Made by a program: the position numbers and the translations under genes
The notes under the pieces: generated by a model
Database searches by the model: none
What the model was told of the DNA's origin: nothing
The model's input: the letters and a program-made list of their open reading frames with translations, nothing else
Shown: positions 5,056 through 50,092 of the stretch, piece by piece
Numbering within the stretch: the stretch's first letter is position 1
Layout of the letters: the number at the start of each line of letters is the position of its first letter
Source of the DNA: an uncultured Pseudomonadales bacterium
Lineage (GTDB): Bacteria; Patescibacteriota; Microgenomatia; UBA1400; PJMF01
NCBI GenBank assembly: GCA_964432115.1
Contig: CAYSMC010000033.1
Location: forward strand, 1,123 to 65,122
DNA: 64,000 bases
Direction: 5' to 3'

Positions 5056-6660
5056 TCATGAAGCGAAAAACATTAACTCAGTGTTGTATGGAGGCAGGTT
5101 AATTTTAAGATTTTTTTCATCATTTTCAAGATGAGAGTAAAGATTTTCGTTGAGCTGATAAGTGCTGATAGCCTGATAATTATTTTGTTGAGGTATTTGT
5201 GCCTGAGTATGGTCTTTGCCCATATTAATGCACACTAAAGCTTTTATTGCTCGATCACTAGATATTACTTCTAACACTGCCAAATTTGATGCTTGTTTAT
5301 GAATTTTAGTCATTGACCACTGACCTTCACGAAAGAGTTTTGATTGTTTGAGTTGTAGTAAATTTTGATAATAACTTTTTAATTGATAATCTTTCTCTTC
5401 TTGAGGGGAACGAGTAATCTGCATTGGTGGCCTAATAGCTCTTCCTTCTTCTTGACCCTGATTGATAAGTAGCATGGTATTAGGCAAAAAACTGATTAAA
5501 GCGGCTGCTGCTTGAGAGAAATCTTTACCCATGATTTTTGTAGCGCGCTCTTCATCATGATTTTCTAGGTAGACTGTGTCTCTGCAAGTTCGCTGATCGT
5601 TAGCACAATGAAGCAAATGAGCGATATGCTCTTTTAAATTATGACAATTTTCCCCGCGAGCTACTCTTAGTAAGTGCTTATAAAGTTCGTCACGATAGAT
5701 ATAATCAAAATTTTCTGCCAAAAGATCCTTTCCCCAATACGCCTCCGCCATAAAATCAAAAGATTTTCCCAAAGACGTTGCTTTGGCTTTGGCTTGAGGA
5801 ATGGCCTCATGCCAAAATGGATGTTTGGTAATGAAATCACATTCTTCATTGTTCAAAGTCCAGCCCCAAGTATGTAGAAAAGTAGAGGGATTGAGCAACA
5901 TTGCCATGTCGCATCTCAAACCATCAACGTGATCAACTAATGATAGCAATTGCTTAGTCATGGCTTGATGAACTTCTGGACGACCATAGTTAAGCTGCAA
6001 GGTATCGGCCCACTCTGGGTAATTGGGATCTTTACCATGAGCTAAGTAGTGAGCTTGACCCCGCCCATTGTCAACGGCTTGGTAAAAATTAGGATGAGCC
6101 TGATATTGCCACTCGGAACCTTGAATAAAATATTCTGGATGCTCAATGGTCCAAGGATGATCTACAGCTGTGTGATTAGGTACAAAATCAATAAAAACTT
6201 TTTTATCTTTACTATGCAGTTTTTCTACCATATGATCCCAAGTTTGCCAATCTTTTACTAAATGTGGATTTGGCAAATAGTTGGCAACGGCAAAAGGACT
6301 GGCAACCACATCTTTTTCAGCATCTATATCTGGGAGAGCATAGGTATACTGATGAGTGTATTTTTTGGCGTGATTGGCGCTAAATTGACTGGGTAAATAA
6401 ATACCCATAAACCAAAAAATGTCATAATTAGCCAATTTTTCTGCCCACGCCTCATCAGGAATAGTATCAAGGGTTATTACTTTTTGATATTGTTGACTCA
6501 GTTCATTTAACCATAGCCGAGTATTAATCAAGTTAAGACTAAGTTGTTGGTCTTTTTTAGGGCTGGCTTGCAAACAATCGACAAGACGTTGATCAAAAAT
6601 TTCAGGAGAAATTAGTTTTTTTTCTGCTAGCTTATTACCTGTAATCTCTTTATTTATCAT
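5056..6660 (-). CDS. glycoside hydrolase family 13 (alpha-amylase family) enzyme
   Basis: GH13 conserved regions are present: FVPNHTA (region I), LRCDMAML (region II nucleophile), FMAEAYW (region III acid/base), LENHDEER (region IV). Confidence 0.8.
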   Translation of the reverse strand: MINKEITGNKLAEKKLISPEIFDQRLVDCLQASPKKDQQLSLNLINTRLWLNELSQQYQKVITLDTIPDEAWAEKLANYDIFWFMGIYLPSQFSANHAKKYTHQYTYALPDIDAEKDVVASPFAVANYLPNPHLVKDWQTWDHMVEKLHSKDKKVFIDFVPNHTAVDHPWTIEHPEYFIQGSEWQYQAHPNFYQAVDNGRGQAHYLAHGKDPNYPEWADTLQLNYGRPEVHQAMTKQLLSLVDHVDGLRCDMAMLLNPSTFLHTWGWTLNNEECDFITKHPFWHEAIPQAKAKATSLGKSFDFMAEAYWGKDLLAENFDYIYRDELYKHLLRVARGENCHNLKEHIAHLLHCANDQRTCRDTVYLENHDEERATKIMGKDFSQAAAALISFLPNTMLLINQGQEEGRAIRPPMQITRSPQEEKDYQLKSYYQNLLQLKQSKLFREGQWSMTKIHKQASNLAVLEVISSDRAIKALVCINMGKDHTQAQIPQQNNYQAISTYQLNENLYSHLENDEKNLKINLPPYNTELMFFAS

Positions 6661-6847: not shown

Positions 6848-7735
6848 GTGGAAGAAAACCCTCAAGTAAATCAAATATTAGATTTGGATTCAGAAAATAG
6901 TCCTATTGTTAATTATCCAGATCAACCCAATAACAATAAACAGAACACTGACAAGGATAAGTTTACAAAATTCCTAAAACTTGCTTTAGTTTTTTTTGCA
7001 ATAATGTTTGTGATTTTAAGCTCTATCTTTGCGTATAAGACTTATTTTTCTTTACCAGCTATTCAATCTTATGAAGAATGTGTTGTTGCTAAGGGAAGCT
7101 CTATTCAAGAATCTTATCCTCCAGTTTGCATTACTAAGAGTGGGCTTAGTTTTACTCAAGAATTAAGTAATTTAATTCCTCCCTCTGTTACTGAAGCACC
7201 AGTTTTGATAGGAGCTGAGGAATGTTATGAGCAAGCCATCAATCTTAAATGTCCAGAGGGAGTTAACTGCATGTTGTTGGCTCCTGAGGATTCTTTCTGC
7301 CAGTGCATGGGGGGCTTTTTGGAAAGAGCTGAAGATTCTACTTTTTGTATTATTGATGAAATAGAATATGGGGGAATATCTTTTGCCGAACTAGATCAAG
7401 GATGGTATTGGGCCAGTTTTAGTGACAAAAAACCTGGAACTCCAGTTGGCTGGGTGTTTAGCAACGCCGGGACACGCAGTGAGGGTTGGTATAAACCCGA
7501 GTCAATAGGGGAAGCCGATTATCTTCTTACAGCTGCTGAAGGCTCTTGTTCAGAAGACTCACAGTGTTATTGGGCAGATCAGGGTTGTGGAGGTGGACAT
7601 GGGGTGTGTACCAACAATCCAGAAAAATATGAAGATTTAATGAGTACTTGTGAGATAAATGAAAAATTCCCAGCAAATTTGGGTTACAGTTGTGGATGTG
7701 TTGAAGCTTTGGGTCAATGTGCTTGGAAAAAATAA
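6848..7735 (+). CDS. hypothetical membrane-anchored, Cys-rich extracytoplasmic protein
   Basis: Single TM (LKLALVFFAIMFVILSSIFAY) followed by a Cys-rich domain (about 20 Cys). GTG start; the true start is uncertain. Confidence 0.45.
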   Translation: MEENPQVNQILDLDSENSPIVNYPDQPNNNKQNTDKDKFTKFLKLALVFFAIMFVILSSIFAYKTYFSLPAIQSYEECVVAKGSSIQESYPPVCITKSGLSFTQELSNLIPPSVTEAPVLIGAEECYEQAINLKCPEGVNCMLLAPEDSFCQCMGGFLERAEDSTFCIIDEIEYGGISFAELDQGWYWASFSDKKPGTPVGWVFSNAGTRSEGWYKPESIGEADYLLTAAEGSCSEDSQCYWADQGCGGGHGVCTNNPEKYEDLMSTCEINEKFPANLGYSCGCVEALGQCAWKK

Positions 7736-7774: not shown

Positions 7775-8530
7775 ATGACAAATATTAAACCTGCCCCTTC
7801 TCAAAATAGCTTTAATGATCCAGTTATGCCGACCGTTGACTTCAATTCACAGCCAGCTATCAAAACTGCTGTTCAATCACCAACGCCAGATGCTAAAGCT
7901 CCAGTTGCCAATCAAGTTCACGTGCCTAAAGAGCAAATAAATATTAATAAAAACAGAGCTTCAAAAACTGATTCAAATAAACTGTGGATAATCCTGTTAG
8001 TGCTTATTGCAACAATTATTGGTTTTTGGATTGGATATTTTACTAATGAATATTTTTTTCGGAATGATTCTAATCCAAACAATCTTATTGGTGAGGATGG
8101 GCAGACAGCTCCAATTGTTCCACCAACTGTAGAACCAGTTGCTGACCCCACATCAGAACCAGTTGAGGTTAATAAAGAATATATTGTTTTTAAAGATGAA
8201 GAGAATTATTTAAACGATGGCCTAAATTTTATTTCTGATGAACAATGTGTTGAAGATGAAATTGCTATTTTAAAAGCTATTGGGGATGATTATTTAACCA
8301 TTCAAATAAACGAATGGACTTTGCAAGAAGATTCTGGTGAATATCTTGCCGAATTAGTTGATTTTCAAGTTAAAGATCAAGAATGTATTGCAGTTAGACC
8401 AATTTGTCCTAATGTGTTAATTGAGCGTTGTTTCTCTTTAGAAAATATTGATGGGGTCTATCATCTTGATTACGAATTTAGGGAAGGGGAGATGATGCCT
8501 CAGAGTCCTGATCTAGAATCAGAACTTTAA
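7775..8530 (+). CDS. hypothetical membrane-anchored protein
   Basis: Pro/Ala-rich N-terminus, one TM (LWIILLVLIATIIGFWIGYF), acidic C-terminal domain with 4 Cys. No family recognised. Confidence 0.45.
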   Translation: MTNIKPAPSQNSFNDPVMPTVDFNSQPAIKTAVQSPTPDAKAPVANQVHVPKEQININKNRASKTDSNKLWIILLVLIATIIGFWIGYFTNEYFFRNDSNPNNLIGEDGQTAPIVPPTVEPVADPTSEPVEVNKEYIVFKDEENYLNDGLNFISDEQCVEDEIAILKAIGDDYLTIQINEWTLQEDSGEYLAELVDFQVKDQECIAVRPICPNVLIERCFSLENIDGVYHLDYEFREGEMMPQSPDLESEL

Positions 8531-8585
8531 GCTATTTTCATTCTTGAGCTTTGTGAGAGACTAACTTATATTGCAATATCTGAGT

Positions 8586-9914
8586 ATGTCAAAAAAGAAA
8601 TCCATTTTTATTGTTGTCGTTATTTTTTCTTTAGTTGTGGGTTTGACTGTGGGCCTGTTAATCAGTCATTATCGTGAGCAAATTCCCTTTATTAAAAATT
8701 TAATCAATAAACAATCAGTTAATGAGGAGAGCGAAAACACTTATTTAGCTTTTTTACAAGAGATTCGAGAAATAATTTTTGAAAATTATTGGGACAAAAT
8801 AAATGAGGCTCAATTTATTAAATTACATGTTTTAGCTATTGAAAAACTAACTGGAACTACTTTGGGTGATGGAATAGAAAATTATGAAGATTTAGACCAA
8901 AAAATTCTTGATCTATTAAATGAATATCAAGAAGAAGAGCTTAAACAAGATTTTACTGCCCAATTAGCAGATCTGGTTTTGACTAATTTAGAACCTTTTG
9001 GTCGGAGCCGACTTTATTCTCAGCAACTTGAGCAAGAATTAGTTGAGCGCGTAAGCAATATTGATCCTGAAGCTGATCATTACCAAGCTTTAGGTGTAGA
9101 AAAGAATGCATCGAGCGAAGAGATTAATCAGGCTTATGAGGAACAGCAGGAGATTTTGATAGAAGATGATGGTGAGGAGGCTCGAGCCAAACTAGCAGTC
9201 ATCCAACAAGCTCATAAAACTTTAGCTGATGAAGCTAATAGAAATCGTTATGATGAGGCAGGAGTTAATCCGACCATGGAGTGGCGTTTATTAAGTCCCG
9301 AAGTTTTCTATTTACATATAAAACAATTTTCTCCAAATACTGTTCAAGAACTTTTAGAGGTAACACAAAAAGTCGATGATCGGAGTGAAGAATTAGATTC
9401 TCTAATTTTAGATTTGAGAGCCAATGTTGGTGGGGCTATTGATGGTTTGCCATATTTTTTGGGTCCGTTTATAGGTCCAAACCAATATGCCTATCAATTT
9501 CTTCAACAGGGAGAGATTACTGATTACAAAACACGTAGTGACTGGTTGCCTTCTCTCATGCGCTATAAAAAAGTAGCAGTCCTAATTGACGATCAAGTGC
9601 AATCGACCGCAGAGGTAATGGCCAGTGTTTTAAAAAAATACAATGTCGGGGTATTGATCGGCAGCACTACTATGGGTTGGGGTACTGTAGAACGAGTGTT
9701 TCCTATCGAAAGGCAAATTAGTGACAGCAAACAATATTCGGTTTTTCTAGTGCATCATTTAACTTTACGTGAAGATGGGGTGGTAATTGAAGGTAATGGA
9801 GTTAATCCCATGATTAATGTTAAAGACGTTGGTTGGCAAAGACAGTTGGAGAGATATTTTGGTGATTCAGCTATTGTGCCGGCAATTATGGAACAATTTG
9901 CCGTTCAGGAATAA
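8586..9914 (+). CDS. S41-family C-terminal processing peptidase (Ctp/Tsp-like) with an embedded J-like domain
   Basis: N-terminal TM anchor. S41 motifs LILDLRANVGG and AEVMASVL...GSTTMGWGT. Residues around DHYQALGVEKNASSEEINQAYEE...RYDEAG align to the DnaJ J-domain but have IED where the HPD motif should be. Confidence 0.65.
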   Translation: MSKKKSIFIVVVIFSLVVGLTVGLLISHYREQIPFIKNLINKQSVNEESENTYLAFLQEIREIIFENYWDKINEAQFIKLHVLAIEKLTGTTLGDGIENYEDLDQKILDLLNEYQEEELKQDFTAQLADLVLTNLEPFGRSRLYSQQLEQELVERVSNIDPEADHYQALGVEKNASSEEINQAYEEQQEILIEDDGEEARAKLAVIQQAHKTLADEANRNRYDEAGVNPTMEWRLLSPEVFYLHIKQFSPNTVQELLEVTQKVDDRSEELDSLILDLRANVGGAIDGLPYFLGPFIGPNQYAYQFLQQGEITDYKTRSDWLPSLMRYKKVAVLIDDQVQSTAEVMASVLKKYNVGVLIGSTTMGWGTVERVFPIERQISDSKQYSVFLVHHLTLREDGVVIEGNGVNPMINVKDVGWQRQLERYFGDSAIVPAIMEQFAVQE

Positions 9915-10628: not shown

Positions 10629-12269
10629 ATGCTTAGGATTTTCAATTTACTGTATCAGAAAAAAACTAAACTCATTTCGCAAAGAGTTTACTTTTGTGAG
10701 TACGGAGCTTTTGTTTATTTAATAGTTCAAGATAAAGATACAGGAAAAATTATTAAATCGGCTAAAAGCAAAGATGGCTTTTTGTTCCGTAAGGTAAGGG
10801 TAAAAGAGGAAGTGGTCAAGCAGTATCCTCAATTAAAAAAGAAAAGACGAGCTTTTATTAGAGAGCGTTATGTGGATCATTTAGCTCCAGCCAGTGAGTT
10901 TATTGATAAATCCAAAATTAGTGTACAAAATGCTTTTAGAACTCCAGAGGGAGTGTTATTGTTTTACCATTATCATAATTATCAGTCCTATCAAGTTGGT
11001 GTAGCTGGTTTCACACATGATGACAATCCCCAATTAATTTGGCGCCATCACCAACCTGTTTGGGAGATGTATGATCAAGTGGCTGATAAAAAAATTGAAT
11101 TTATTGATTTGATAGAAATCAATGGTCAACTAATTGCCTATTGGTTAGTAGAAAATGAAGCAGTTTGGGCAACTGTATATCCGAATTATCGAATTACTGA
11201 ACAAATTGAAATTGTTAAAGGTTCACAACTTGATCGACCAAAAGCTAATCCATTAATTAGCCCTAATCCTGCTCACGATTGGGAATCCTTTACCACTTTT
11301 AATCCTGGGGCTCTCTATGACGCTGGAAAAGTTCACTTGTTGTATCGAGCACAAGGTCACGACTATGTTTCTTCGATCGGTTACGCCAGCAGTGCTGACG
11401 GGATACACATCGAGCAACAATTAGAAAAGCCAGTATTTATTCCCACCCAACCTTTTGAAATTCCAATTCAAGCTGGACAAGTCAATATGAAATTCATGTC
11501 TGCAGGTTATGGAGGTTGTGAAGATCCACGTTTAACTAGAATTGACGATCGAATTTACATGACTTATGTTGCTTTTAATGGTTATTCTGAACCACGAATC
11601 GCTATTAGTTCTATTTCGGTCAAAGACTTTCTTGATCATAATTGGTTGTGGACTCATCCAGTTTTGATTTCTCGACCGGGGGTAGTAACAAAGAGTGCTT
11701 GTATTTTGCCAGAAAAAATTGACGGCAAATATGTTATTTTTCATCGAGTTTTTCCCGATATTTTAATTGACTACCGCGACGATTTAGATTTCAATGATGG
11801 TCAATATTTGTCCTCTCAAAAAAAGATAAGTCCGCGCTCAGCTCTATGGTGGGACAGTCGAAAAATTGGTGTGGGTGCTCCTCCGCTTAAAACGAAAGAT
11901 GGATGGTTACTAATCTATCAATCTATTGATGACAAAGAAGGTCATCCATATAAGGTTGGAGCAATGTTGCTTGATTTGAACGATCCTAGCGAGGTTTTAC
12001 ATCGTTCTCGACAACCAATTCTTGAACCACAAGAATGGTATGACAATGATGGTTTTAAAGCAGGGGTGGTTTATCCTTGTGGCGCAGTGATTATTGGTGA
12101 AACTCTCTTTGTTTATTATGGAGGAGCAGATTCTAGAGTGTGCGTGGCCACTGCTAATTTAGAAGAGTTTTTAAATCAGCTTAAAAAAGAAGGTGAGGCA
12201 AAAGTTGAACCAACTGTAATTACCAAATTAGATCAAAAAAGTTTAGCTAAAAAAGGCTTTTTTTCGTAA
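10629..12269 (+). CDS. GH130-family glycoside phosphorylase-like protein (beta-mannoside phosphorylase family, DUF377) with a roughly 190-aa N-terminal extension
   Basis: GH130 signature SAGYGGCEDPRLTRIDDRIYMTY together with FNPGALYD and GAPPLKTKDGWLLIYQS, which are typical 5-bladed propeller motifs. Confidence 0.7.
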   Translation: MLRIFNLLYQKKTKLISQRVYFCEYGAFVYLIVQDKDTGKIIKSAKSKDGFLFRKVRVKEEVVKQYPQLKKKRRAFIRERYVDHLAPASEFIDKSKISVQNAFRTPEGVLLFYHYHNYQSYQVGVAGFTHDDNPQLIWRHHQPVWEMYDQVADKKIEFIDLIEINGQLIAYWLVENEAVWATVYPNYRITEQIEIVKGSQLDRPKANPLISPNPAHDWESFTTFNPGALYDAGKVHLLYRAQGHDYVSSIGYASSADGIHIEQQLEKPVFIPTQPFEIPIQAGQVNMKFMSAGYGGCEDPRLTRIDDRIYMTYVAFNGYSEPRIAISSISVKDFLDHNWLWTHPVLISRPGVVTKSACILPEKIDGKYVIFHRVFPDILIDYRDDLDFNDGQYLSSQKKISPRSALWWDSRKIGVGAPPLKTKDGWLLIYQSIDDKEGHPYKVGAMLLDLNDPSEVLHRSRQPILEPQEWYDNDGFKAGVVYPCGAVIIGETLFVYYGGADSRVCVATANLEEFLNQLKKEGEAKVEPTVITKLDQKSLAKKGFFS

Positions 12270-12330: not shown

Positions 12331-14271
12331 ATGAGTCAAGCCAAGCAAGGTCTACAGTTTGAAAGACATCAAAAAAATCCAATTTTGTCTCCCAAGTCTG
12401 GTAAAGACTGGCAGGCTCGAGCGGTTTTTAACCCCAGCGTTGTCAAAGAAACTGAGGACAGCTACCATATGTTGTATCGGGCAGTGTCTAATGAAAAAGA
12501 ACAGACTGGTCAGTGGATGAGTTTGTCAACTATTGGCTATGCTGCAAGCAGAAATGGGCTTGATTTTTCAAACACTAGACAATTAATTGTGCCTGAATAT
12601 GATTGGGAAAAATTTGGCTGTGAAGATCCTCGAGTGACTTTTATTGATGGTCAATATTTTATTTTTTACACTGCCCTTTCAGATTTTCCTCATAGCGCAG
12701 ATGGCATTAGGGTGGCGGTAGCGATTAGCGATGATTTAAGAACTATTAAAGAAAAACATTTAGTCACTCACTTCAACGCTAAGGCCATGGCTTTATTCCC
12801 CGAAAAAATTAATGGTCAGTATGTAGCTGTTTTAACTCCAAATACCGATTTACCACCAGCCATGATTGCTGTTGCAAAATTTGATGAATTGGAAGATATT
12901 TGGTCGCCAGGATATTGGGAAAAATGGTATGAATGTATTGATCGTCATCAAATTAATTTGGAGCGTATTGACACTGACCAAATTGAAGTAGGAGGAGTGC
13001 CGATCAAGACTGAGGATGGTTGGTTGTTGCTCTATGCTCATATTCAAAACTATCCAACCGAAAACAAGCGAATTTTTGGTATCGAGGCAGCATTGCTAGA
13101 TTCAAAAAATCCTCAGGAGATTAAAGTTAGAACCAAGGGGCCCCTTCTAACCCCAGGTGTTAAATATGAGGCTGATGGCATGGTGCCCAATGTTATTTTT
13201 CCTTCATCAGCTTTGATTGAGGGTGATAAATTGCGTTTATATTATGGTGCAGCCGATACTCATTGTTCAGCTGCAGAAATCTCCTTAGCTGATCTAGTTA
13301 AAGAGATGAAAGCCAATCTTTTTAAAGAGAGCTATCACTTGGTCAAATATCATCGCAATCCAATTTTGATACCTCGCAGTGAAAATTTTTGGGAAGCCAA
13401 TTCAGTGTTTAATCCAGCTGCAGTATATGTCGGTGACAAATTTTATGTAGTTTATCGAGCCCAATCGCCGGACAATACTTCAACTTTGGGTTTGGCAGAA
13501 AGTGATGACGGCTTTAATTTCAAGCGTTACCACGAACCAATTTATGTACCACGAAAAGAATTCGAACAAAAAAGAGAACCAGGGAGATTATCTGGCTGTG
13601 AAGATCCTCGTATTACTCGCCTAGGAGATGAATTTTTGATGTTCTATACCGCCTACGATGGTATTAATCCACCAAGAGTAGCTCTAAGTTTAATTGCGGT
13701 CAATGATTTTGTTAATCATAACTGGCAATGGTCCGAACCCATAGTTATATCTTCACCAGAAATCGATAATAAAAACAGTTGCCTATTCCCAGAAAAAGTT
13801 AGAGGGCGCTATGTAATCTTACATAGAATGGCTGGTAAAGAGATTGCTATTGATTATCTTGATGATTTAAGTGAGTTGCAAACTGAAGGAGTGTGGTTGG
13901 AAAAAGAACAATCAATTGCTCCTAGAACAGAACACTGGGATGGTTTAAAAATTGGTATTGCTGGGCCACCACTTTTGGTAGATCAAGGATGGTTGCTGCT
14001 TTATCATGGTGTGTCAGATATTGATCATCATTATCGAGTGGGTTTCATGCTTTTAGATAGAGATGATCCAGGCAAAGTTTTGTATCGCTCACCTTATCCA
14101 ATTCTCAAACCAACTGAAGAATTTGAAAGAATTGGTGATGTTGATAATGTGGTGTTTCCCTGCGGGGCAGTGATTGTGAAAGGCACGTTGTTTGTCTACT
14201 ACGGCGGGGCAGATAAGGTGGTTTGTGTAGCCACAGCTGATTTAAGTGAGTTATTGGCGCAAATTAAGTAA
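12331..14271 (+). CDS. tandem-duplicated GH130-family glycoside phosphorylase-like protein
   Basis: Two complete GH130 repeats, each with a GCEDPR(V/I)T motif (FGCEDPRVTFIDGQYF and SGCEDPRITRLGDEFL). It is a paralogue of the upstream gene. Confidence 0.75.
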   Translation: MSQAKQGLQFERHQKNPILSPKSGKDWQARAVFNPSVVKETEDSYHMLYRAVSNEKEQTGQWMSLSTIGYAASRNGLDFSNTRQLIVPEYDWEKFGCEDPRVTFIDGQYFIFYTALSDFPHSADGIRVAVAISDDLRTIKEKHLVTHFNAKAMALFPEKINGQYVAVLTPNTDLPPAMIAVAKFDELEDIWSPGYWEKWYECIDRHQINLERIDTDQIEVGGVPIKTEDGWLLLYAHIQNYPTENKRIFGIEAALLDSKNPQEIKVRTKGPLLTPGVKYEADGMVPNVIFPSSALIEGDKLRLYYGAADTHCSAAEISLADLVKEMKANLFKESYHLVKYHRNPILIPRSENFWEANSVFNPAAVYVGDKFYVVYRAQSPDNTSTLGLAESDDGFNFKRYHEPIYVPRKEFEQKREPGRLSGCEDPRITRLGDEFLMFYTAYDGINPPRVALSLIAVNDFVNHNWQWSEPIVISSPEIDNKNSCLFPEKVRGRYVILHRMAGKEIAIDYLDDLSELQTEGVWLEKEQSIAPRTEHWDGLKIGIAGPPLLVDQGWLLLYHGVSDIDHHYRVGFMLLDRDDPGKVLYRSPYPILKPTEEFERIGDVDNVVFPCGAVIVKGTLFVYYGGADKVVCVATADLSELLAQIK

Positions 14272-33595: not shown

Positions 33596-33669
33596 GCGCC
33601 CATAGCTCAGCTGGATAGAGCGTTTGTTTGCGGAACAAAAGGCCAGAGGTTCGAATCCCCTTGGGCGCA
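33596..33669 (+). tRNA. tRNA-Arg, anticodon loop reads UU-GCG-GA (anticodon GCG)
   Basis: Hand-folded cloverleaf: acceptor GCGCCCA/TGGGCGC, D-arm GCTC/GAGC with A20, anticodon stem TTTGT/ACAAA, T-arm with TTCGAAT loop, discriminator A73, and no encoded CCA. Confidence 0.7.
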
Positions 33670-33758
33670 CAGTTTATTTCATAATTTGCTAATTTAGTTT
33701 CAACTATGTAATTTTTAATAAAATGGTTTTTTTAATTAAGCTGGGTTAAAATAGACAA

Positions 33759-33961: not shown

Positions 33962-34045
33962 GGAAGGGTCGCATAGTGGCTATTGCATCAGCCTCGAAAA
34001 CTGACGCCTTTTTGGGCATCGCGGGTTCGAGTCCCGCCCCTTCCG
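33962..34045 (+). tRNA. tRNA-Ser (anticodon CGA), type II with long variable arm
   Basis: Acceptor GGAAGGG/CCCTTCC, 3-bp D-stem, anticodon loop CT-CGA-AA, long variable arm, T-loop TTCGAGT, and G73. Confidence 0.7.
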
Positions 34046-34055
34046 CTCTAACTTT

Positions 34056-36664: not shown

Positions 36665-36747
36665 GGAGGTGTCGCATAGCGGTCAATTGCACACGCTTGG
36701 AAAGCGTGAGCCTCGCGGCTTCAAGGGTTCGAATCCCTTCACCTCCG
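36665..36747 (+). tRNA. tRNA-Ser (anticodon GGA), type II
   Basis: Acceptor GGAGGTG/CACCTCC, anticodon stem CACGC/GCGTG, loop TT-GGA-AA, long variable arm, T-loop TTCGAAT, and G73. A TATAAT box lies about 20 nt upstream. Confidence 0.75.
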
Positions 36748-36826
36748 CAGTCAAGAATAAATAAAGTGAATTCTTGACTCGTACCCGAATGGTACACTGC
36801 CGATTAGTAATATTATTGGATTAATT

Positions 36827-44634: not shown

Positions 44635-47600
44635 ATGAAATTTTTTTCTCTATTAAAAAAAGTCTGGCCCCAGCTTTTTTTATTTCTTCTAGTAACCCTT
44701 CTTGTTTATCTGAATTTTACTCCAGCTACTTATTTAATTGGCTGGGATAATCTACAGGTTGAACTTGATCTCGGCATTAATCTAGAAAGAGCTTTTAATG
44801 TCTCTTGGCAGGAATATCAGGGCTTAGGTTTATTAGGAGGCATGGGACATGGAGCAGATCTAGTCAGGCAGATTTTGTTGTGGCCTTTTTCGCTTATCTT
44901 AAAGCAAAATTGGCTGCGTTATTTTTGGAATTATTTGGCTTTATTGTCTGGTGTTTGGGGGGCTTATAGTTTATTTGCTTATTTATTAAAGAATAATAAA
45001 CAATATCAACTTTTGGCTTTACTCGGCGCTAGTTTTTATCTATTAAATCTTGGCACGGTGCAAAATTTCTACGTTACTTTTGAGCCTTTTGCCGCTTTTT
45101 TTGCTTTTTTTCCCTGGTTAATTTATTACTTTTTAACTTATCTTGAACGATCCAACAAAAAAAATCTGCTGGGCTTTATCGCTTTTTCTTTATTAGGAAC
45201 AATTTTTGGCTATGTGCAGACGGTTTTTATTGTTTATCTGCTAGTTTTGTTATTAATCATGGCTTTTTTTCTGTTCAAGAAAAAAATTACTTGGAAAAAA
45301 GTAGGCTTAATTTTATTAGTGGTTTTTTTGACCAATGCTTTTTGGTTATTGCCGGTGGTTTATTTCACGATTTTTGCAAGTGCCACCACCCTAGCAGCCA
45401 AGATTAACTTGATGTCTACTGAGGTGACCTTTTTAAAAAATAACCAGTTTGGTAGTTTTACTAATTTGGCCACACTTAAAGGTTTTTGGCTTGATCATAC
45501 TGATTTTAACCAGTGGGGCAACAGTGTTTATTTAATGGATGTTTGGAAAAGCCATTTAAATCAGGGATGGCTGGCAGTTTTAACTTGGCTTTATTTTGCC
45601 TTATTAGTTCTTGGTATTGGATCATTATTTTTGGCTAAAAAGAGCCAGTCGCATTTGCGTCACAGCCATTTGTCAATTTTAGTGGTTTTTTTGTTTACGG
45701 CTTTTATTTTGGCCGGTTCCAATCCACCCTTAGCTTTTGTTTATGACTTTTTGCGCCAAGTGGTGCCTTTATTTGGTCAAATATTTCGCTCAGCCTTTAC
45801 CAAATGGATCGTTCCCTACAGCTTATTTTATAGCTTGTTGTTGACTTTTGGTTTAGCTTTTCTTTTTTCTTTTTTCAAAAAGAAAATCTGGCAATTTCTT
45901 ATAGCCGGCGCATTTTTCTTATCTTTAATTTTTTATTCCTTACCTAGTTTTACTGGTAATTTCTTTTATTCTCGCTTGCGAGTGAGTGTTCCCGATGCCT
46001 ATTTTCAAGTGTTTGATTATTTTAAAAATGAGGCGCCAGAGAGTAGTCGGATTGCTAATTTGCCTCAGCATACTTTTTATGGTTGGCAATGGAATGATTG
46101 GGGTTATCGTGGCTCTGGTTTTATTTGGTACGGGATTAAACAGCCAATTTTAGATCGGGCTTTTGATGTCTGGAGTGAGGCCAGCGAGCGCTATTATTGG
46201 CAATTACAGGCAGCGCTAGATAAAAAGGATATTGCTGCATTGGAAAATGTTTTAGCTCAATATGCAGTTGATTATTTGCTACTTGATGAATCAATTATTA
46301 ATCGCAATACCAAAAAGCCTTTTAATTATCAGGCACTCAAAGAGTTTTTACAAAGTGCAGACAATATCGAATTAATTGAGCAATATGATTTTATAAGTAT
46401 TTATCGGGTTAATAATCAAGCACAAGAAAAGAGCCAGGACTTTATTACTTTGTATAAAGATTTGCCTTTGCTAGCCAATGACTATCGTTTTGCTTGGTCT
46501 GATCAAGCCTTTAGTGACTTTGGCCATTATTTAACTATGGATAATCATAATTTCTCTATTGAAGATCTGAATATTGATGCCATTTATCCCTTTCCCGCCC
46601 TGTTTAGCAACCATTGGCAGGAGGATTTAGAATTTTCTTTAACCAAAGATGACAGCTACTTTTATCTAAGTAGTTTGAAAGACAGCCCAAGCGCCGATTT
46701 TCAATTGCAGTTAGCAGATTTGATGAAATCTGAAGAGCAGTTGCCTTTTCGCTTAACTTGGGTAGTGGAGGATAATTTGGCGAAACTCAATTTTAGCTTG
46801 CTAGCCCCAGAAATTATTGATAGCCAGCAAGTAACTCATTTTACTCTAGAGAAAGAATTTATTTTTGATGCGCGATTGTGTATGGCTAGCGAAACTTGTT
46901 ATATCAACATCAATAATCAGCTACTTACTCAATTAGGTGAGAGTGGTGAACTGGATTTATTATTAAGCACCAGTGTTCCCAACAGCATTGCCCTTAGTAG
47001 CGAGCAAAAAACTGCTTATTTCGACTATGCTTTTTTTGATTTAAATCTTTACAATTTGATCGTTGAGCAAAAACCCTATCGGGGAGATAGCCAGCTAAAA
47101 GTTAAAATCCCCAAAGTCATCTTGCAAAGCAATGTGTTAGTTAGTGAACTTAATCTTTTTGAGCCAGTCGATTGTCGGCCACTGCAAGAAGGTTTGGTGG
47201 CTAAAGAACAGTGGGATGAGGGGACTTTTTATCAGGCGGTTGGCACTAGTGTTTGTGATCATTTCTATTTGGCTAATTTAGCTCATAATTTAGGCTATCT
47301 GATTAAGCTAGATGCGCAGAATTTAGCTAGTTTGCCAGCCATTTTTGCGGTGCAGTCAGACAGCATTGGTCGTAGTCCTTTAGAGACCTATTTAAGTGAG
47401 GGAGTTAATTACCACATATTGCCTCCGACTGAGGATTTCAATCAAGGTTACACCCTGTATTTTTCCACTGATTCTTATGGTTGGGAAATCAATAATAACC
47501 TAATCAAGTCTGTGGAAGTTTTCTTTTTCCCCTACAATTTCCTAAAAGAATTGCGCTGGCAAAAAACTCAAGCACCGGTTTTGCCCAATCAGTTGAGTAA

Positions 47601-47925
47601 TTGTGATTTTAGCGTTAACAAAAAAGCTCTTTGGTTATATCAAATTGATTTGCCAACTAATTGTGATGCTCAATATTTAAGCTTAGCTCAGGCTTATGAC
47701 GGGGCTTGGTTGGCTTACCAAGATGGGCAAAGACTTAAACAAGCCAAAGTAAATAATTGGGCCAATGCTTGGTTCTTAGACAATCAAGACAGTGAAAGTC
47801 GAATTTATCTTTTCTTTTGGCCACAATTACTTCAATATTTTGGCTTTTTACTGATCGTTATTAGTTTATTTTTCTTATTGCTAAAATTGCGAAAAAAGCG
47901 ACCAGATCGTTTAAAAAGCAATTAA
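44635..47925 (+). CDS. very large polytopic membrane protein (about 14 TM N-terminal region + roughly 600-aa extracytoplasmic domain + C-terminal TM); putative GT-C/YfhO-like glycan polymerase or transferase
   Basis: 1096-aa ORF. The hydrophobic N-terminal half resembles GT-C family membrane glycosyltransferases. No specific family recognised. Confidence 0.55.
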   Translation: MKFFSLLKKVWPQLFLFLLVTLLVYLNFTPATYLIGWDNLQVELDLGINLERAFNVSWQEYQGLGLLGGMGHGADLVRQILLWPFSLILKQNWLRYFWNYLALLSGVWGAYSLFAYLLKNNKQYQLLALLGASFYLLNLGTVQNFYVTFEPFAAFFAFFPWLIYYFLTYLERSNKKNLLGFIAFSLLGTIFGYVQTVFIVYLLVLLLIMAFFLFKKKITWKKVGLILLVVFLTNAFWLLPVVYFTIFASATTLAAKINLMSTEVTFLKNNQFGSFTNLATLKGFWLDHTDFNQWGNSVYLMDVWKSHLNQGWLAVLTWLYFALLVLGIGSLFLAKKSQSHLRHSHLSILVVFLFTAFILAGSNPPLAFVYDFLRQVVPLFGQIFRSAFTKWIVPYSLFYSLLLTFGLAFLFSFFKKKIWQFLIAGAFFLSLIFYSLPSFTGNFFYSRLRVSVPDAYFQVFDYFKNEAPESSRIANLPQHTFYGWQWNDWGYRGSGFIWYGIKQPILDRAFDVWSEASERYYWQLQAALDKKDIAALENVLAQYAVDYLLLDESIINRNTKKPFNYQALKEFLQSADNIELIEQYDFISIYRVNNQAQEKSQDFITLYKDLPLLANDYRFAWSDQAFSDFGHYLTMDNHNFSIEDLNIDAIYPFPALFSNHWQEDLEFSLTKDDSYFYLSSLKDSPSADFQLQLADLMKSEEQLPFRLTWVVEDNLAKLNFSLLAPEIIDSQQVTHFTLEKEFIFDARLCMASETCYININNQLLTQLGESGELDLLLSTSVPNSIALSSEQKTAYFDYAFFDLNLYNLIVEQKPYRGDSQLKVKIPKVILQSNVLVSELNLFEPVDCRPLQEGLVAKEQWDEGTFYQAVGTSVCDHFYLANLAHNLGYLIKLDAQNLASLPAIFAVQSDSIGRSPLETYLSEGVNYHILPPTEDFNQGYTLYFSTDSYGWEINNNLIKSVEVFFFPYNFLKELRWQKTQAPVLPNQLSNCDFSVNKKALWLYQIDLPTNCDAQYLSLAQAYDGAWLAYQDGQRLKQAKVNNWANAWFLDNQDSESRIYLFFWPQLLQYFGFLLIVISLFFLLLKLRKKRPDRLKSN

Positions 47926-47950
47926 TTTCTTAATTTGCTATACTAAAGTT

Positions 47951-50092
47951 GTGCTAAAAAACCATCTCTTATTAAAAATTAAAACCAGCAAGGACAGTGA
48001 CGAGACTGAAGAAGCAGCAGTTCAGCTGTTTTCGACTCTTCCCAAGTTAAAAAATAGCTTATTTGACAAGTTGCAGGGCAAGAATGAGAGTTTAAGTTTT
48101 GAAATTTTGGTTAAAGAGCAAAACATTCATTTTCTAGTTCAGGTGCCGGCCAGACTCTTAGAATATTTCAAAGGAGCAATCCAGGCCAGTTATCCTGAGG
48201 CGGTGATTGAAAAAATGATTACTGATCCGGTAGATCTGTTTTTTGCTAAAGATCAGCAATTGACTGTAGCCAGCTTGAAATTAAAAAATCATAGTTACTT
48301 GCCGCTTAAAACCTATCAAGATTTTAGTGAGATCGATCCTTTATCGACGTTGATGTCGACCTTGTCTAAAAATCAAGGGCAGGACGCTATTTTAGTGCAA
48401 GTATTGTTATCTAATGACTTGGGTTTAATGTTGGGAAAGCAAAGTTTATCTAGCGAAGACTTAGTTGATCACCCTCAACAAGCTTTAATTAAGCAAAAAA
48501 TGGAACAGCGCCAATTAAGAGCTGCTTTTAAAATTGCGGTAGTGACTGATGATAAAAAAAGAAGCAAACTGCTGTTAAGCAATATTGCCGCTGCTTATCA
48601 AGCCACCTCCAAAAGTGAAAGCAATGAGTTGGCTTTAAAAAAATGCCATTTATTTAAAAAATGCTTTTTAAAAAGCATGAAAAAGCGCAGTTTGAAGATG
48701 TCTCCTAGTTTGATTTTAAGTGTTGATGAATTGGCTACGCTTTATCATTTTCCTAGCCAAAAATTAAGTAATATTAAGAATATTTCCTGGGGTAAGAAAA
48801 TCCTTGGTGAAGCGCCAGATAATTTACCGATAGTTAGTGCTGACAGTTCAGATAAAACTAAAAACGAAATTAATATTATTGGCGAGACTGTTTATAAAAA
48901 TCGCTCTGTCAAATATGGCTTATTAAATGCTGATCGGCGTCGTCATGTCTATGTGATTGGTAAAACTGGTACTGGTAAATCTACTTTGTTGGCTAACATG
49001 GCCATTAATGATCTCAAGCACAATAAGGGCTTGTGTGTTATTGATCCGCATGGGGATTTAGTTGAAACCTTACTAGATTATATTCCCAAGCATCGCATTA
49101 ATGACGTGGTTTATTTTGATCCAGCCGATACTGAGCGAACGGTGCAAATTAACCTCTTTGAGGGGGAGAATGTTGTTCACCGCGAGCTAATTGCGTCTGG
49201 AATAATTTCTGTCTTTAAAAAACTTTATGGTTACTCTTGGGGGCCAAGACTTGAGTATATTTTGCGCAATTGTCTGCTAACTTTATTAAAAAGCGAAAAA
49301 GCCAAGTTATCTGACGTTGTAGATCTGCTAACCGATGAAAAATTCCGCGAAAAAGTTATCAGCAAACTTAATGATCCAATTCTCAAAAACTTTTGGGTCA
49401 ATGAATATAACAAAATGCACGATCGCCAGCGCCAAGAACAGATTGCTTCAATCCTCAACAAAGTTGGTCAATTTGTCTCTTCGCCACTGGTGCGCAATGT
49501 GGTTAATACCACCCAGTCTTCTTTTAGCATTGAACAATTAATGGACGAGGGCAAGATTTTATTGATTAATTTATCTCAAGGACGTTTGGGTGAGGATAAT
49601 GCCACTCTGTTGGGGGCAATGATGATTACTAAAATTCAATTAGCGGCCATGGCTAGAGTCAATACTAGTGAAGAAAAGCGCCGAGATTTTTATCTTTATG
49701 TTGATGAGTTTCAAAATTTTGCTACCGATGCTTTTGTCAAAATTTTGTCTGAAGCCCGTAAGTATCGACTTAATTTAATTTTGGCTAACCAATATATTGA
49801 TCAAATTCCTGAGGAAGTGCGCAATGCTATTTTTGGTAACTGTGGCAATATTATTAGTTTTGTGATGGGGGCTGGTGATGCTAACTATTTTCAAGCTGAA
49901 TATGGTGGACTTTATACTCAAGATGATTTGCTTAATTTAGATAAATATCAAGTCATTAATAAAATTTCGATTGATAATGTGCTGAGTCGACCCTTTCCTG
50001 CCTATACTTTACCTTTGGCGAGCAGTAAAAACCAAAATCGAGCAAAGGTGATTCGCAATAGTCGGGAACGCTACGCTAAAAAAAAATATTAG
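47951..50092 (+). CDS. P-loop ATPase of the TraD/VirD4/HerA (type IV secretion system DNA-binding / DUF87) superfamily with a roughly 300-aa N-terminal domain of unknown function
   Basis: Walker A YVIGKTGTGKST followed by VIDPHGD, Walker B LYVDEFQNFA, and a C-terminal RKYRLNLILANQ sensor region. No TM segments. GTG start. Confidence 0.6.
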   Translation: MLKNHLLLKIKTSKDSDETEEAAVQLFSTLPKLKNSLFDKLQGKNESLSFEILVKEQNIHFLVQVPARLLEYFKGAIQASYPEAVIEKMITDPVDLFFAKDQQLTVASLKLKNHSYLPLKTYQDFSEIDPLSTLMSTLSKNQGQDAILVQVLLSNDLGLMLGKQSLSSEDLVDHPQQALIKQKMEQRQLRAAFKIAVVTDDKKRSKLLLSNIAAAYQATSKSESNELALKKCHLFKKCFLKSMKKRSLKMSPSLILSVDELATLYHFPSQKLSNIKNISWGKKILGEAPDNLPIVSADSSDKTKNEINIIGETVYKNRSVKYGLLNADRRRHVYVIGKTGTGKSTLLANMAINDLKHNKGLCVIDPHGDLVETLLDYIPKHRINDVVYFDPADTERTVQINLFEGENVVHRELIASGIISVFKKLYGYSWGPRLEYILRNCLLTLLKSEKAKLSDVVDLLTDEKFREKVISKLNDPILKNFWVNEYNKMHDRQRQEQIASILNKVGQFVSSPLVRNVVNTTQSSFSIEQLMDEGKILLINLSQGRLGEDNATLLGAMMITKIQLAAMARVNTSEEKRRDFYLYVDEFQNFATDAFVKILSEARKYRLNLILANQYIDQIPEEVRNAIFGNCGNIISFVMGAGDANYFQAEYGGLYTQDDLLNLDKYQVINKISIDNVLSRPFPAYTLPLASSKNQNRAKVIRNSRERYAKKKY

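Follow-up and report, generated by a model that had tools for sequence, protein, structure and literature searches.

The stretch of DNA analysed here (the window; 64,000 nucleotides) comprises positions 1,123 to 65,122 of the forward strand of contig CAYSMC010000033.1 (GenBank assembly GCA_964432115.1), which is deposited as an uncultured Pseudomonadales bacterium and placed by GTDB in the Patescibacteriota (Microgenomatia). At positions 8586 to 9914 of the window lies a gene for a protein in which a domain with the fold of the DnaJ J-domain is embedded in a protein of the S41 peptidase fold, behind an N-terminal membrane anchor. The gene is a single open reading frame (ORF) without interruption; a possible alternative start is the in-frame TTG at 8571, but relatives start at the ATG, with MSKKK. 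A database cluster (P0001) is 100% identical over 442 amino acids (aa), and the identical 442-aa protein was found on three independent contigs from three samples. The following features were assigned by using Pfam profiles, family alignments and an AlphaFold2 (AF2) model.

8586–9914, plus strand: ORF of the J-like/S41 fusion protein, complete, 442 aa and stop
8592–8669, plus strand: signal-anchor or transmembrane helix, aa 3–28 (KKK, then about 22 uncharged residues; AF2 helix aa 3–28)
8733–8984, plus strand: four-helix bundle, aa 50–133 (AF2 secondary structure)
8985–9053, plus strand: N-L-x-P-F-G-R-S-R-L-Y motif (aa 134–144, strand 142–145) and cap-like helix (aa 146–156)
9075–9263, plus strand: J-like domain, aa 164–226, four-helix J fold matching PF00226, without the His-Pro-Asp (HPD) motif and with an acidic helix II
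9159–9167, plus strand: I192-E193-D194 tripeptide, aligned to the HPD motif
9264–9833, plus strand: S41 peptidase core and cap hairpin, aa 227–416, matching PF03572
9603–9605, plus strand: Ser340, nucleophile position in QS(S/T)AEVM, invariant, aligned to S302 of CtpA
9678–9692, plus strand: W365-G-T367-V-E369, with Trp at the position of the catalytic Lys (25 residues after the nucleophile, S+25), Thr at S+27 and Glu at the position of the triad Gln (S+29), all invariant
9753–9755, plus strand: His390, second strand of the cap hairpin, conserved in 119 of 120 family clusters and 92 of 99 diverse members

Family members were collected by protein search, which returned at least 886 clusters at E≤1e-3; the best 120 of these are uniform in length (∼425–450 aa) and carry the same two Pfam domains. 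The clusters come from sources named, among others, Woesebacteria, Shapirobacteria, Microgenomates and Patescibacteria. A further scan, with a single genome for each GTDB species, found at least 186 encoding genomes, the titles of which name, among others, Shapiro-, Woese- and Roizmanbacteria, WWE3 and a few Parcubacteria-type organisms. A preliminary description, made from the DNA letters alone, had called the architecture unusual and had proposed a survey of related genomes for the fusion. The fusion recurs throughout the 186 or more species-level genomes; unusual though the architecture is beside characterised proteases, it is standard throughout a large Microgenomates family. The gene is near-universal across a large clade and is housekeeping-like rather than accessory.

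Many metagenome-assembled genomes titled “uncultured Pseudomonadales”, “Gammaproteobacteria” or “Clostridia bacterium” (loci L004, L006–L012, L019, L024 and others) carry the Patescibacteria-type gene. Such titles, on bulk-submitted genomes, look like placeholder or erroneous taxonomy and provide no evidence for the family outside the Patescibacteria.

Both PF00226 and PF03572 were matched and IED stands at the HPD site, which bears out the earlier reading of a J-like domain without HPD embedded in an S41-fold protein. At the aligned site, which differs widely from member to member (KKD, EKE, QED, SAT and others), HPD was found in none of the 120 clusters, none of the 83 genome loci and none of 15 distant representatives at 50% identity. 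The net charge of helix II is −1.46±1.68 in the family versus +2.49±1.43 in HPD-bearing J-domains (n=85), this comparison set being the 85 HPD J-domain stretches aligned from other proteins retrieved with the same 71-residue query. The J-like module is less conserved than the S41 core (entropy 2.0 versus 1.22 bits), and conservation of at least 90% is confined to the fold-core residues L169, A209, L213 and Y222. The loop between helices II and III ranges from ∼7 to 22 residues in length. In three species genomes (loci L053, L065 and L083) the module is shortened to 50 aa by deletion of the end of helix II, the II–III loop and the start of helix III, a natural experiment by which this part of the domain is dispensable. 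Since neither HPD nor a basic helix-II face is present, the module would not act on Hsp70. The sequences support the view that it cannot serve as an Hsp70 ATPase activator, and the expectation in the preliminary description that it would not stimulate Hsp70 is upheld on the same grounds (HPD absent, helix II acidic, loop dispensable). In the AF2 model the predicted local distance difference test (pLDDT) values are high over the domain and the predicted template modelling score (pTM) is 0.82, which suggests that the J-like domain is held in a fixed orientation.

Tandem J-domain proteins were also retrieved with the J-like query (P0121, 679 aa; P0122; P0123; P0124; P0125, 802 aa). P0121 has six HPD-bearing J-domains in a row, and others consist of two to three J-like repeats without HPD (EET, EEM and VDV in P0125, for example). 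We know of no description of multi-J arrays of this kind.

No PDZ domain was matched at E≤0.01 in any of 107 family members. The order predicted by AF2 is helices 52–133, strand 142–145, helix 146–156, J-like domain 164–226, core strands from residue 231 and a hairpin (367–373/384–394); that of CtpB from B. subtilis is α1–α2, β-a, cap helix α3, PDZ domain, core and β-n/β-o (PMC3808539). As modelled, the domain order of the protein reproduces that of CtpB, with the J-like domain in place of the PDZ domain. In the alignment to CtpA from P. aeruginosa, the PDZ-bearing segment of CtpA (residues 64–160) is left unaligned and corresponds to query residues 99–225. Helices 1 and 2 of the N-terminal bundle are counterparts of CtpB_N-like helices, whereas the helices of aa 100–133 form an additional pair; PF22694 (CtpB_N-like) was matched in 23 of the 107 members, and the bundle aligns weakly to the N terminus of CtpA. 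A profile of the bundle and cap motif gave only chance matches among PDB sequences (E>0.3).

The N-L-x-P-F-G-R-S-R-L-Y motif is nearly invariant in the family. Its strand and the helix of aa 146–156 may be the topological equivalents of strand β-a and cap helix α3 of CtpB, and the same motif segment may be that of the GGG-x-His98 segment of NSR; both assignments for aa 134–156 follow from secondary-structure order (PMC3808539, PMC4698656), not from residue-level alignment. In CtpB the PDZ domain acts as the gate of the protease tunnel and links substrate C-terminus binding to active-site assembly (PMC3808539), and for the PDZ domain of Prc a stimulatory role is given in PMC6686036. As the J fold has no peptide groove, the family could not use PDZ-type recognition of a free substrate C terminus. 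Only the fold-core residues of the J-like domain, which the preliminary description took for a possible protein–protein interaction module, are kept while its surface drifts, so a structural lid in the PDZ slot fits better than a conserved docking surface.

The S41 core with DLRANVGG had been recognised in the preliminary description, and D276-L-R-x-N280-x-G282-G283, the oxyanion-hole motif of S41 peptidases, proved to be invariant. The Ser/Lys dyad that had been placed in the same core has to be withdrawn, because the family invariably has Trp where the catalytic Lys would stand and Glu in place of the triad Gln. In the alignment to CtpA, the register of which was fixed by the entry of the S302A mutant (7rqh), Trp365 falls on the catalytic Lys327 and Glu369 on Gln331. 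S340, W365 and E369 are each present in all 120 family clusters, a set retrieved without any motif filter and therefore an unbiased basis for the invariance of W365 and E369; in the genome-derived set the same invariance is in part built in, since GWGT[VI]E belonged to one of the two patterns used for the scan. Ser340, the QS(S/T)AEVM helix and D276-x-x-x-N280-x-G282-G283 are invariant down to ∼30% identity. The triad of CtpB is Ser309-Lys334-Gln338, and the Q338E exchange by itself abolishes activity (PMC3808539). With Lys replaced by Trp and Gln by Glu, a canonical Ctp mechanism is thus excluded.

SaNSR (PDB 4y68) is a transmembrane-anchored S41 protease without a PDZ domain; it has the motif TASSAEM, a Ser236–His98 dyad, and Tyr261, Thr263 and Asn265 at S+25, S+27 and S+29 (PMC4698656). 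The protein described here is like NSR in its transmembrane anchor, N-terminal helical bundle, cap and core and in the lack of a PDZ domain. It reads TQSSAEVM and has W365, T367 and E369 at the same distances from the nucleophile; the common spacing G-[W/Y]-x-T-x-[E/N] was worked out from the residue numbering of the paper rather than read off an alignment. It differs from NSR in the J-like insert after the cap helix, where NSR has no inserted domain, and in having no assignable counterpart of the base His98, the segment reading G-R-S-R instead. G139-R140-S141-R142 is almost invariant and is, by secondary-structure register, the counterpart of the His98 segment. Residues 110–262 of the NSR chain were matched by hmmsearch to positions 6–147 of the core profile, although weakly (E=0.003). 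As Ser340 and NxGG are invariant and the spacing resembles that of the Ser–His enzyme NSR, an active peptidase with a non-lysine general base is proposed.

CtpB and CtpA (MEROPS S41A) share with the family the fold of core and cap, the nucleophile Ser and NxGG. They differ in that their inserted domain is a PDZ domain rather than a J-like four-helix module, in the catalytic Lys and triad Gln (Trp and Glu here), and in lacking the extra helix pair of aa 100–133; the C-terminal dimerisation domain of CtpB is absent here, and the protein ends ∼25 residues past the core. The modules of IRBP (retinol-binding protein 3), a non-catalytic S41 fold, likewise have neither a catalytic Lys nor a PDZ domain, and IRBP is the best sequence match for the core (E=4.8e-16). 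However, IRBP has no Ser at the aligned nucleophile position, whereas the family keeps both Ser340 and the oxyanion motif invariant. The S41 relatives CPAF and tricorn protease reportedly use Ser–His(–Glu) catalysis. In both, the His is supplied by a segment that precedes the core, a part in which the family has no conserved His, and the overall architectures are unrelated. On the J-domain side, HPD-less J folds serve as structural subunits in Pam16/Tim16, plant J-like proteins, NdhU and mitoribosomal mL77. Those proteins either form subunits of their own or are membrane proteins of Hsp70-containing compartments, whereas the module described here is fused inside a bacterial protease and probably lies outside the cytoplasm, where neither Hsp70 nor ATP is expected.

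The N-terminal membrane anchor ahead of the J-like domain, already noted in the preliminary description, was recovered both as KKK followed by ∼22 uncharged residues and as the AF2 helix of aa 3–28. Its flanks were compared in 117 members: the short N-terminal flank has on average 3.3 K/R and almost no acidic residues, and the 15 residues of the C-terminal flank have 3.4 K/R and 1.3 D/E. The net charge difference favours N-in/C-out in 73% of the members and the opposite orientation in 10%. In a few members long hydrophilic extensions (30–130 aa) precede the transmembrane helix, consistent with N-in. Neither a lipobox nor a cleavable signal peptide was found as a variant in the family, apart from one chance match in a doubtful N-terminal extension. 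The ectodomain is free of Cys in 96% of the members; this is weak evidence for export, since 12 of the 52 window proteins are also Cys-free. Those bacterial Ctp and NSR enzymes that have been characterised are located outside the cytoplasm (PMC3808539, PMC4698656). An extracytoplasmic location of the J-like and S41 domains, with a predicted N-in/C-out topology, is therefore considered quite probable. The exported nature asserted earlier is to that extent likely, but it derives from charge patterns and the opposite pattern in 10% of the members speaks against it.

The protein is best explained as an active, N-terminally anchored and most likely extracytoplasmic S41 peptidase, with a J-like lid in the position of the PDZ domain and a base other than lysine (probability roughly 60%). 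What the analysis shows directly is the domain composition and fold, the substituted residues, the lack of a PDZ domain and how the family is distributed. It would be a single-pass, membrane-tethered surface peptidase (a Ctp/NSR-type homologue) typical of the Microgenomates/Patescibacteria, in which the helical bundle, cap sheet and core would build a substrate tunnel. The rigid J-fold module may wall or cap this tunnel in place of a mobile PDZ gate, or may provide a lineage-specific recognition surface. Ser340 would attack the substrate, aided by a non-lysine base on the three-stranded cap sheet, for which Glu369, the invariant Arg140/Arg142 segment and His390 are candidates; envelope or secreted proteins or peptides are the presumed substrates. 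In this explanation we infer the topology, the role as a lid, the capacity for catalysis and which residue is the base. A more specific proposal, that of an undescribed S41 subclass confined to the Patescibacteria that combines an extracytoplasmic J-fold lid with a Ser340 assisted by a base that is neither Lys nor His (for example, Glu369, possibly with Arg140/Arg142), is put forward tentatively.

Several observations weigh against an active peptidase of this kind. Both triad changes would inactivate a classical Ctp protease and give the core the look of a pseudo-enzyme. As a replacement base His390 was downgraded: N, R, S, K or Y takes its place in 7 of 99 diverse members. No conserved His was found N-terminal to the S41 core in the family alignment, so no NSR-type Ser–His dyad can be assigned. 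By sequence, IRBP, CtpB and CtpA are nearer to the core (E 1e-16 to 1e-14) than NSR is (E=0.003), and the NSR-like spacing may thus be convergent. The orientation in the membrane is not proven, given the opposite net charge in one tenth of the members and the balance of K/R alone (3.3 versus 3.4), and no conserved neighbour at the 83 loci points to a substrate or partner. The main competing reading is a pseudo-protease: the S41 fold would be a binding or scaffold module as in IRBP, which would bind an envelope ligand or protein without cleaving it, and the J-like domain would be a further structural element. The loss of Lys and Gln, with Q338E alone sufficient to abolish CtpB activity, the place of IRBP as the top sequence match for the core and the lack of an invariant His or Lys assignable as the base speak for it. 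The invariant nucleophile and oxyanion motif, which set the family apart from IRBP, make it rather unlikely, if a serious competitor.

If the protease is active, one subtype of that model would be a resistance enzyme of the NSR type, which would inactivate a lantibiotic or another antimicrobial peptide on the cell surface. This is improbable: no nsr-type operon (NsrRK two-component system and NsrFP ABC transporter) and no other conserved neighbour was found at the 83 loci, His98 has no assignable equivalent, the similarity to NSR is weak, and a near-universal, housekeeping-like gene is unlike an accessory resistance gene. Still less credible is the opposite orientation (N-out, C-in), in which a cytoplasmic J-like domain would recruit or regulate DnaK without stimulating it and deliver clients to the S41 domain. 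There are S41 relatives in the cytoplasm (tricorn), K/R are balanced across the transmembrane helix, and the charge of 10% of the members would suit it; yet the signal-anchor is of the classic “MSKKK plus hydrophobic” kind, the net charge in 73% of the members and the N-terminal extensions of 30–130 aa fit N-in, no Hsp70-binding determinants are left (no HPD, an acidic helix II and a loop deleted in some genomes), and an extracytoplasmic location is that of the characterised Ctp and NSR enzymes of bacteria (PMC3808539, PMC4698656). An assembly or gene-calling chimera of a dnaJ fragment and a ctp gene is excluded as the origin of the fusion, misassembly having been named as a possible refutation in the preliminary description; nothing was found in its favour. 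The identical 442-aa protein lies on three independent contigs from three samples, the ORF is uninterrupted, AF2 is confident over the domain junctions, and the same architecture is found in at least 886 related clusters and at least 186 species genomes.

Gene context gives no functional lead, as there is neither a conserved partner nor a nearby paralogue: the best neighbour cluster was found at 12 of the 83 loci, no second S41 or J-domain gene was detected in 857 kb of flanks, and no paralogue lies within the 64-kb window. The window is ordinary chromosomal DNA (∼35% GC) with genes for DnaG, BipA, GH130 enzymes, a P-type ATPase and a homologue of a type IV secretion system (T4SS) coupling protein. 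Directly upstream of the fusion gene, on the same strand, are two orphan genes (6848–7735 and 7775–8530, plus strand; gaps of 39 and 55 nt), each with one predicted transmembrane segment and no Pfam match. The product of the first is rich in Cys (16 Cys in 295 aa, 5.4% versus a window mean of 0.8%). Together with the S41 gene, the two orphans could make up an operon for surface proteins; only 5 of the 83 related loci have the immediate upstream neighbour, which is thus lineage-specific.

Downstream follow tandem Glyco_hydro_130 genes (10629–12269 and 12331–14271, plus strand), the second with two GH130 domains; together with an alpha-amylase family gene upstream (5056–6660, minus strand), they make up a small carbohydrate-processing cluster around the S41 gene. 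An ORF for 1096 aa without a Pfam match (44635–47925, plus strand) directly precedes a gene for a TrwB/VirD4-type coupling-protein homologue (47951–50092, plus strand; TrwB_AAD_bind and TraG-D_C), and this pair (44635–50092) may belong to the patescibacterial T4SS reported in PMC12102498. Three tRNA genes were located on the plus strand (Arg-GCG, 33596–33670; Ser-CGA, 33962–34046; Ser-GGA, 36665–36748); the window has no other Rfam match at or above a family's gathering score.

Proteins of this family are already labelled in databases with both Pfam domains, and the names “DnaJ domain-containing protein” and “curved DNA-binding protein CbpA” are misleading for them. In a literature search no paper was found that describes a DnaJ/S41 fusion or Ctp proteases in the candidate phyla radiation. 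The largest survey of J-domain proteins excluded HPD-less sequences and unclassified organisms (PMC10410713), and with HPD-less sequences removed from such surveys, families of this type are overlooked. HPD-less J-like proteins and Lys-less S41 enzymes are each already known; new is their combination, in which a J fold fills the PDZ slot, Trp and Glu take the place of Lys and Gln, and the distribution is restricted to the Patescibacteria. If active, the family would represent a third solution to gating and catalysis among S41 peptidases, beside the PDZ-gated Ser-Lys-Gln enzymes (Ctp) and the PDZ-less Ser-His enzymes (NSR), and a clear bacterial case of a J fold put to structural use independently of the Hsp70 system and probably outside the cytoplasm. 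If, in addition, the base is neither Lys nor His, it would be an envelope protease with a new gating or recognition logic in hosts whose cell-surface biology is largely unknown. For the Microgenomates there is almost no experimental biology, and the retention of the gene in hundreds of their small genomes suggests an important function in the envelope.
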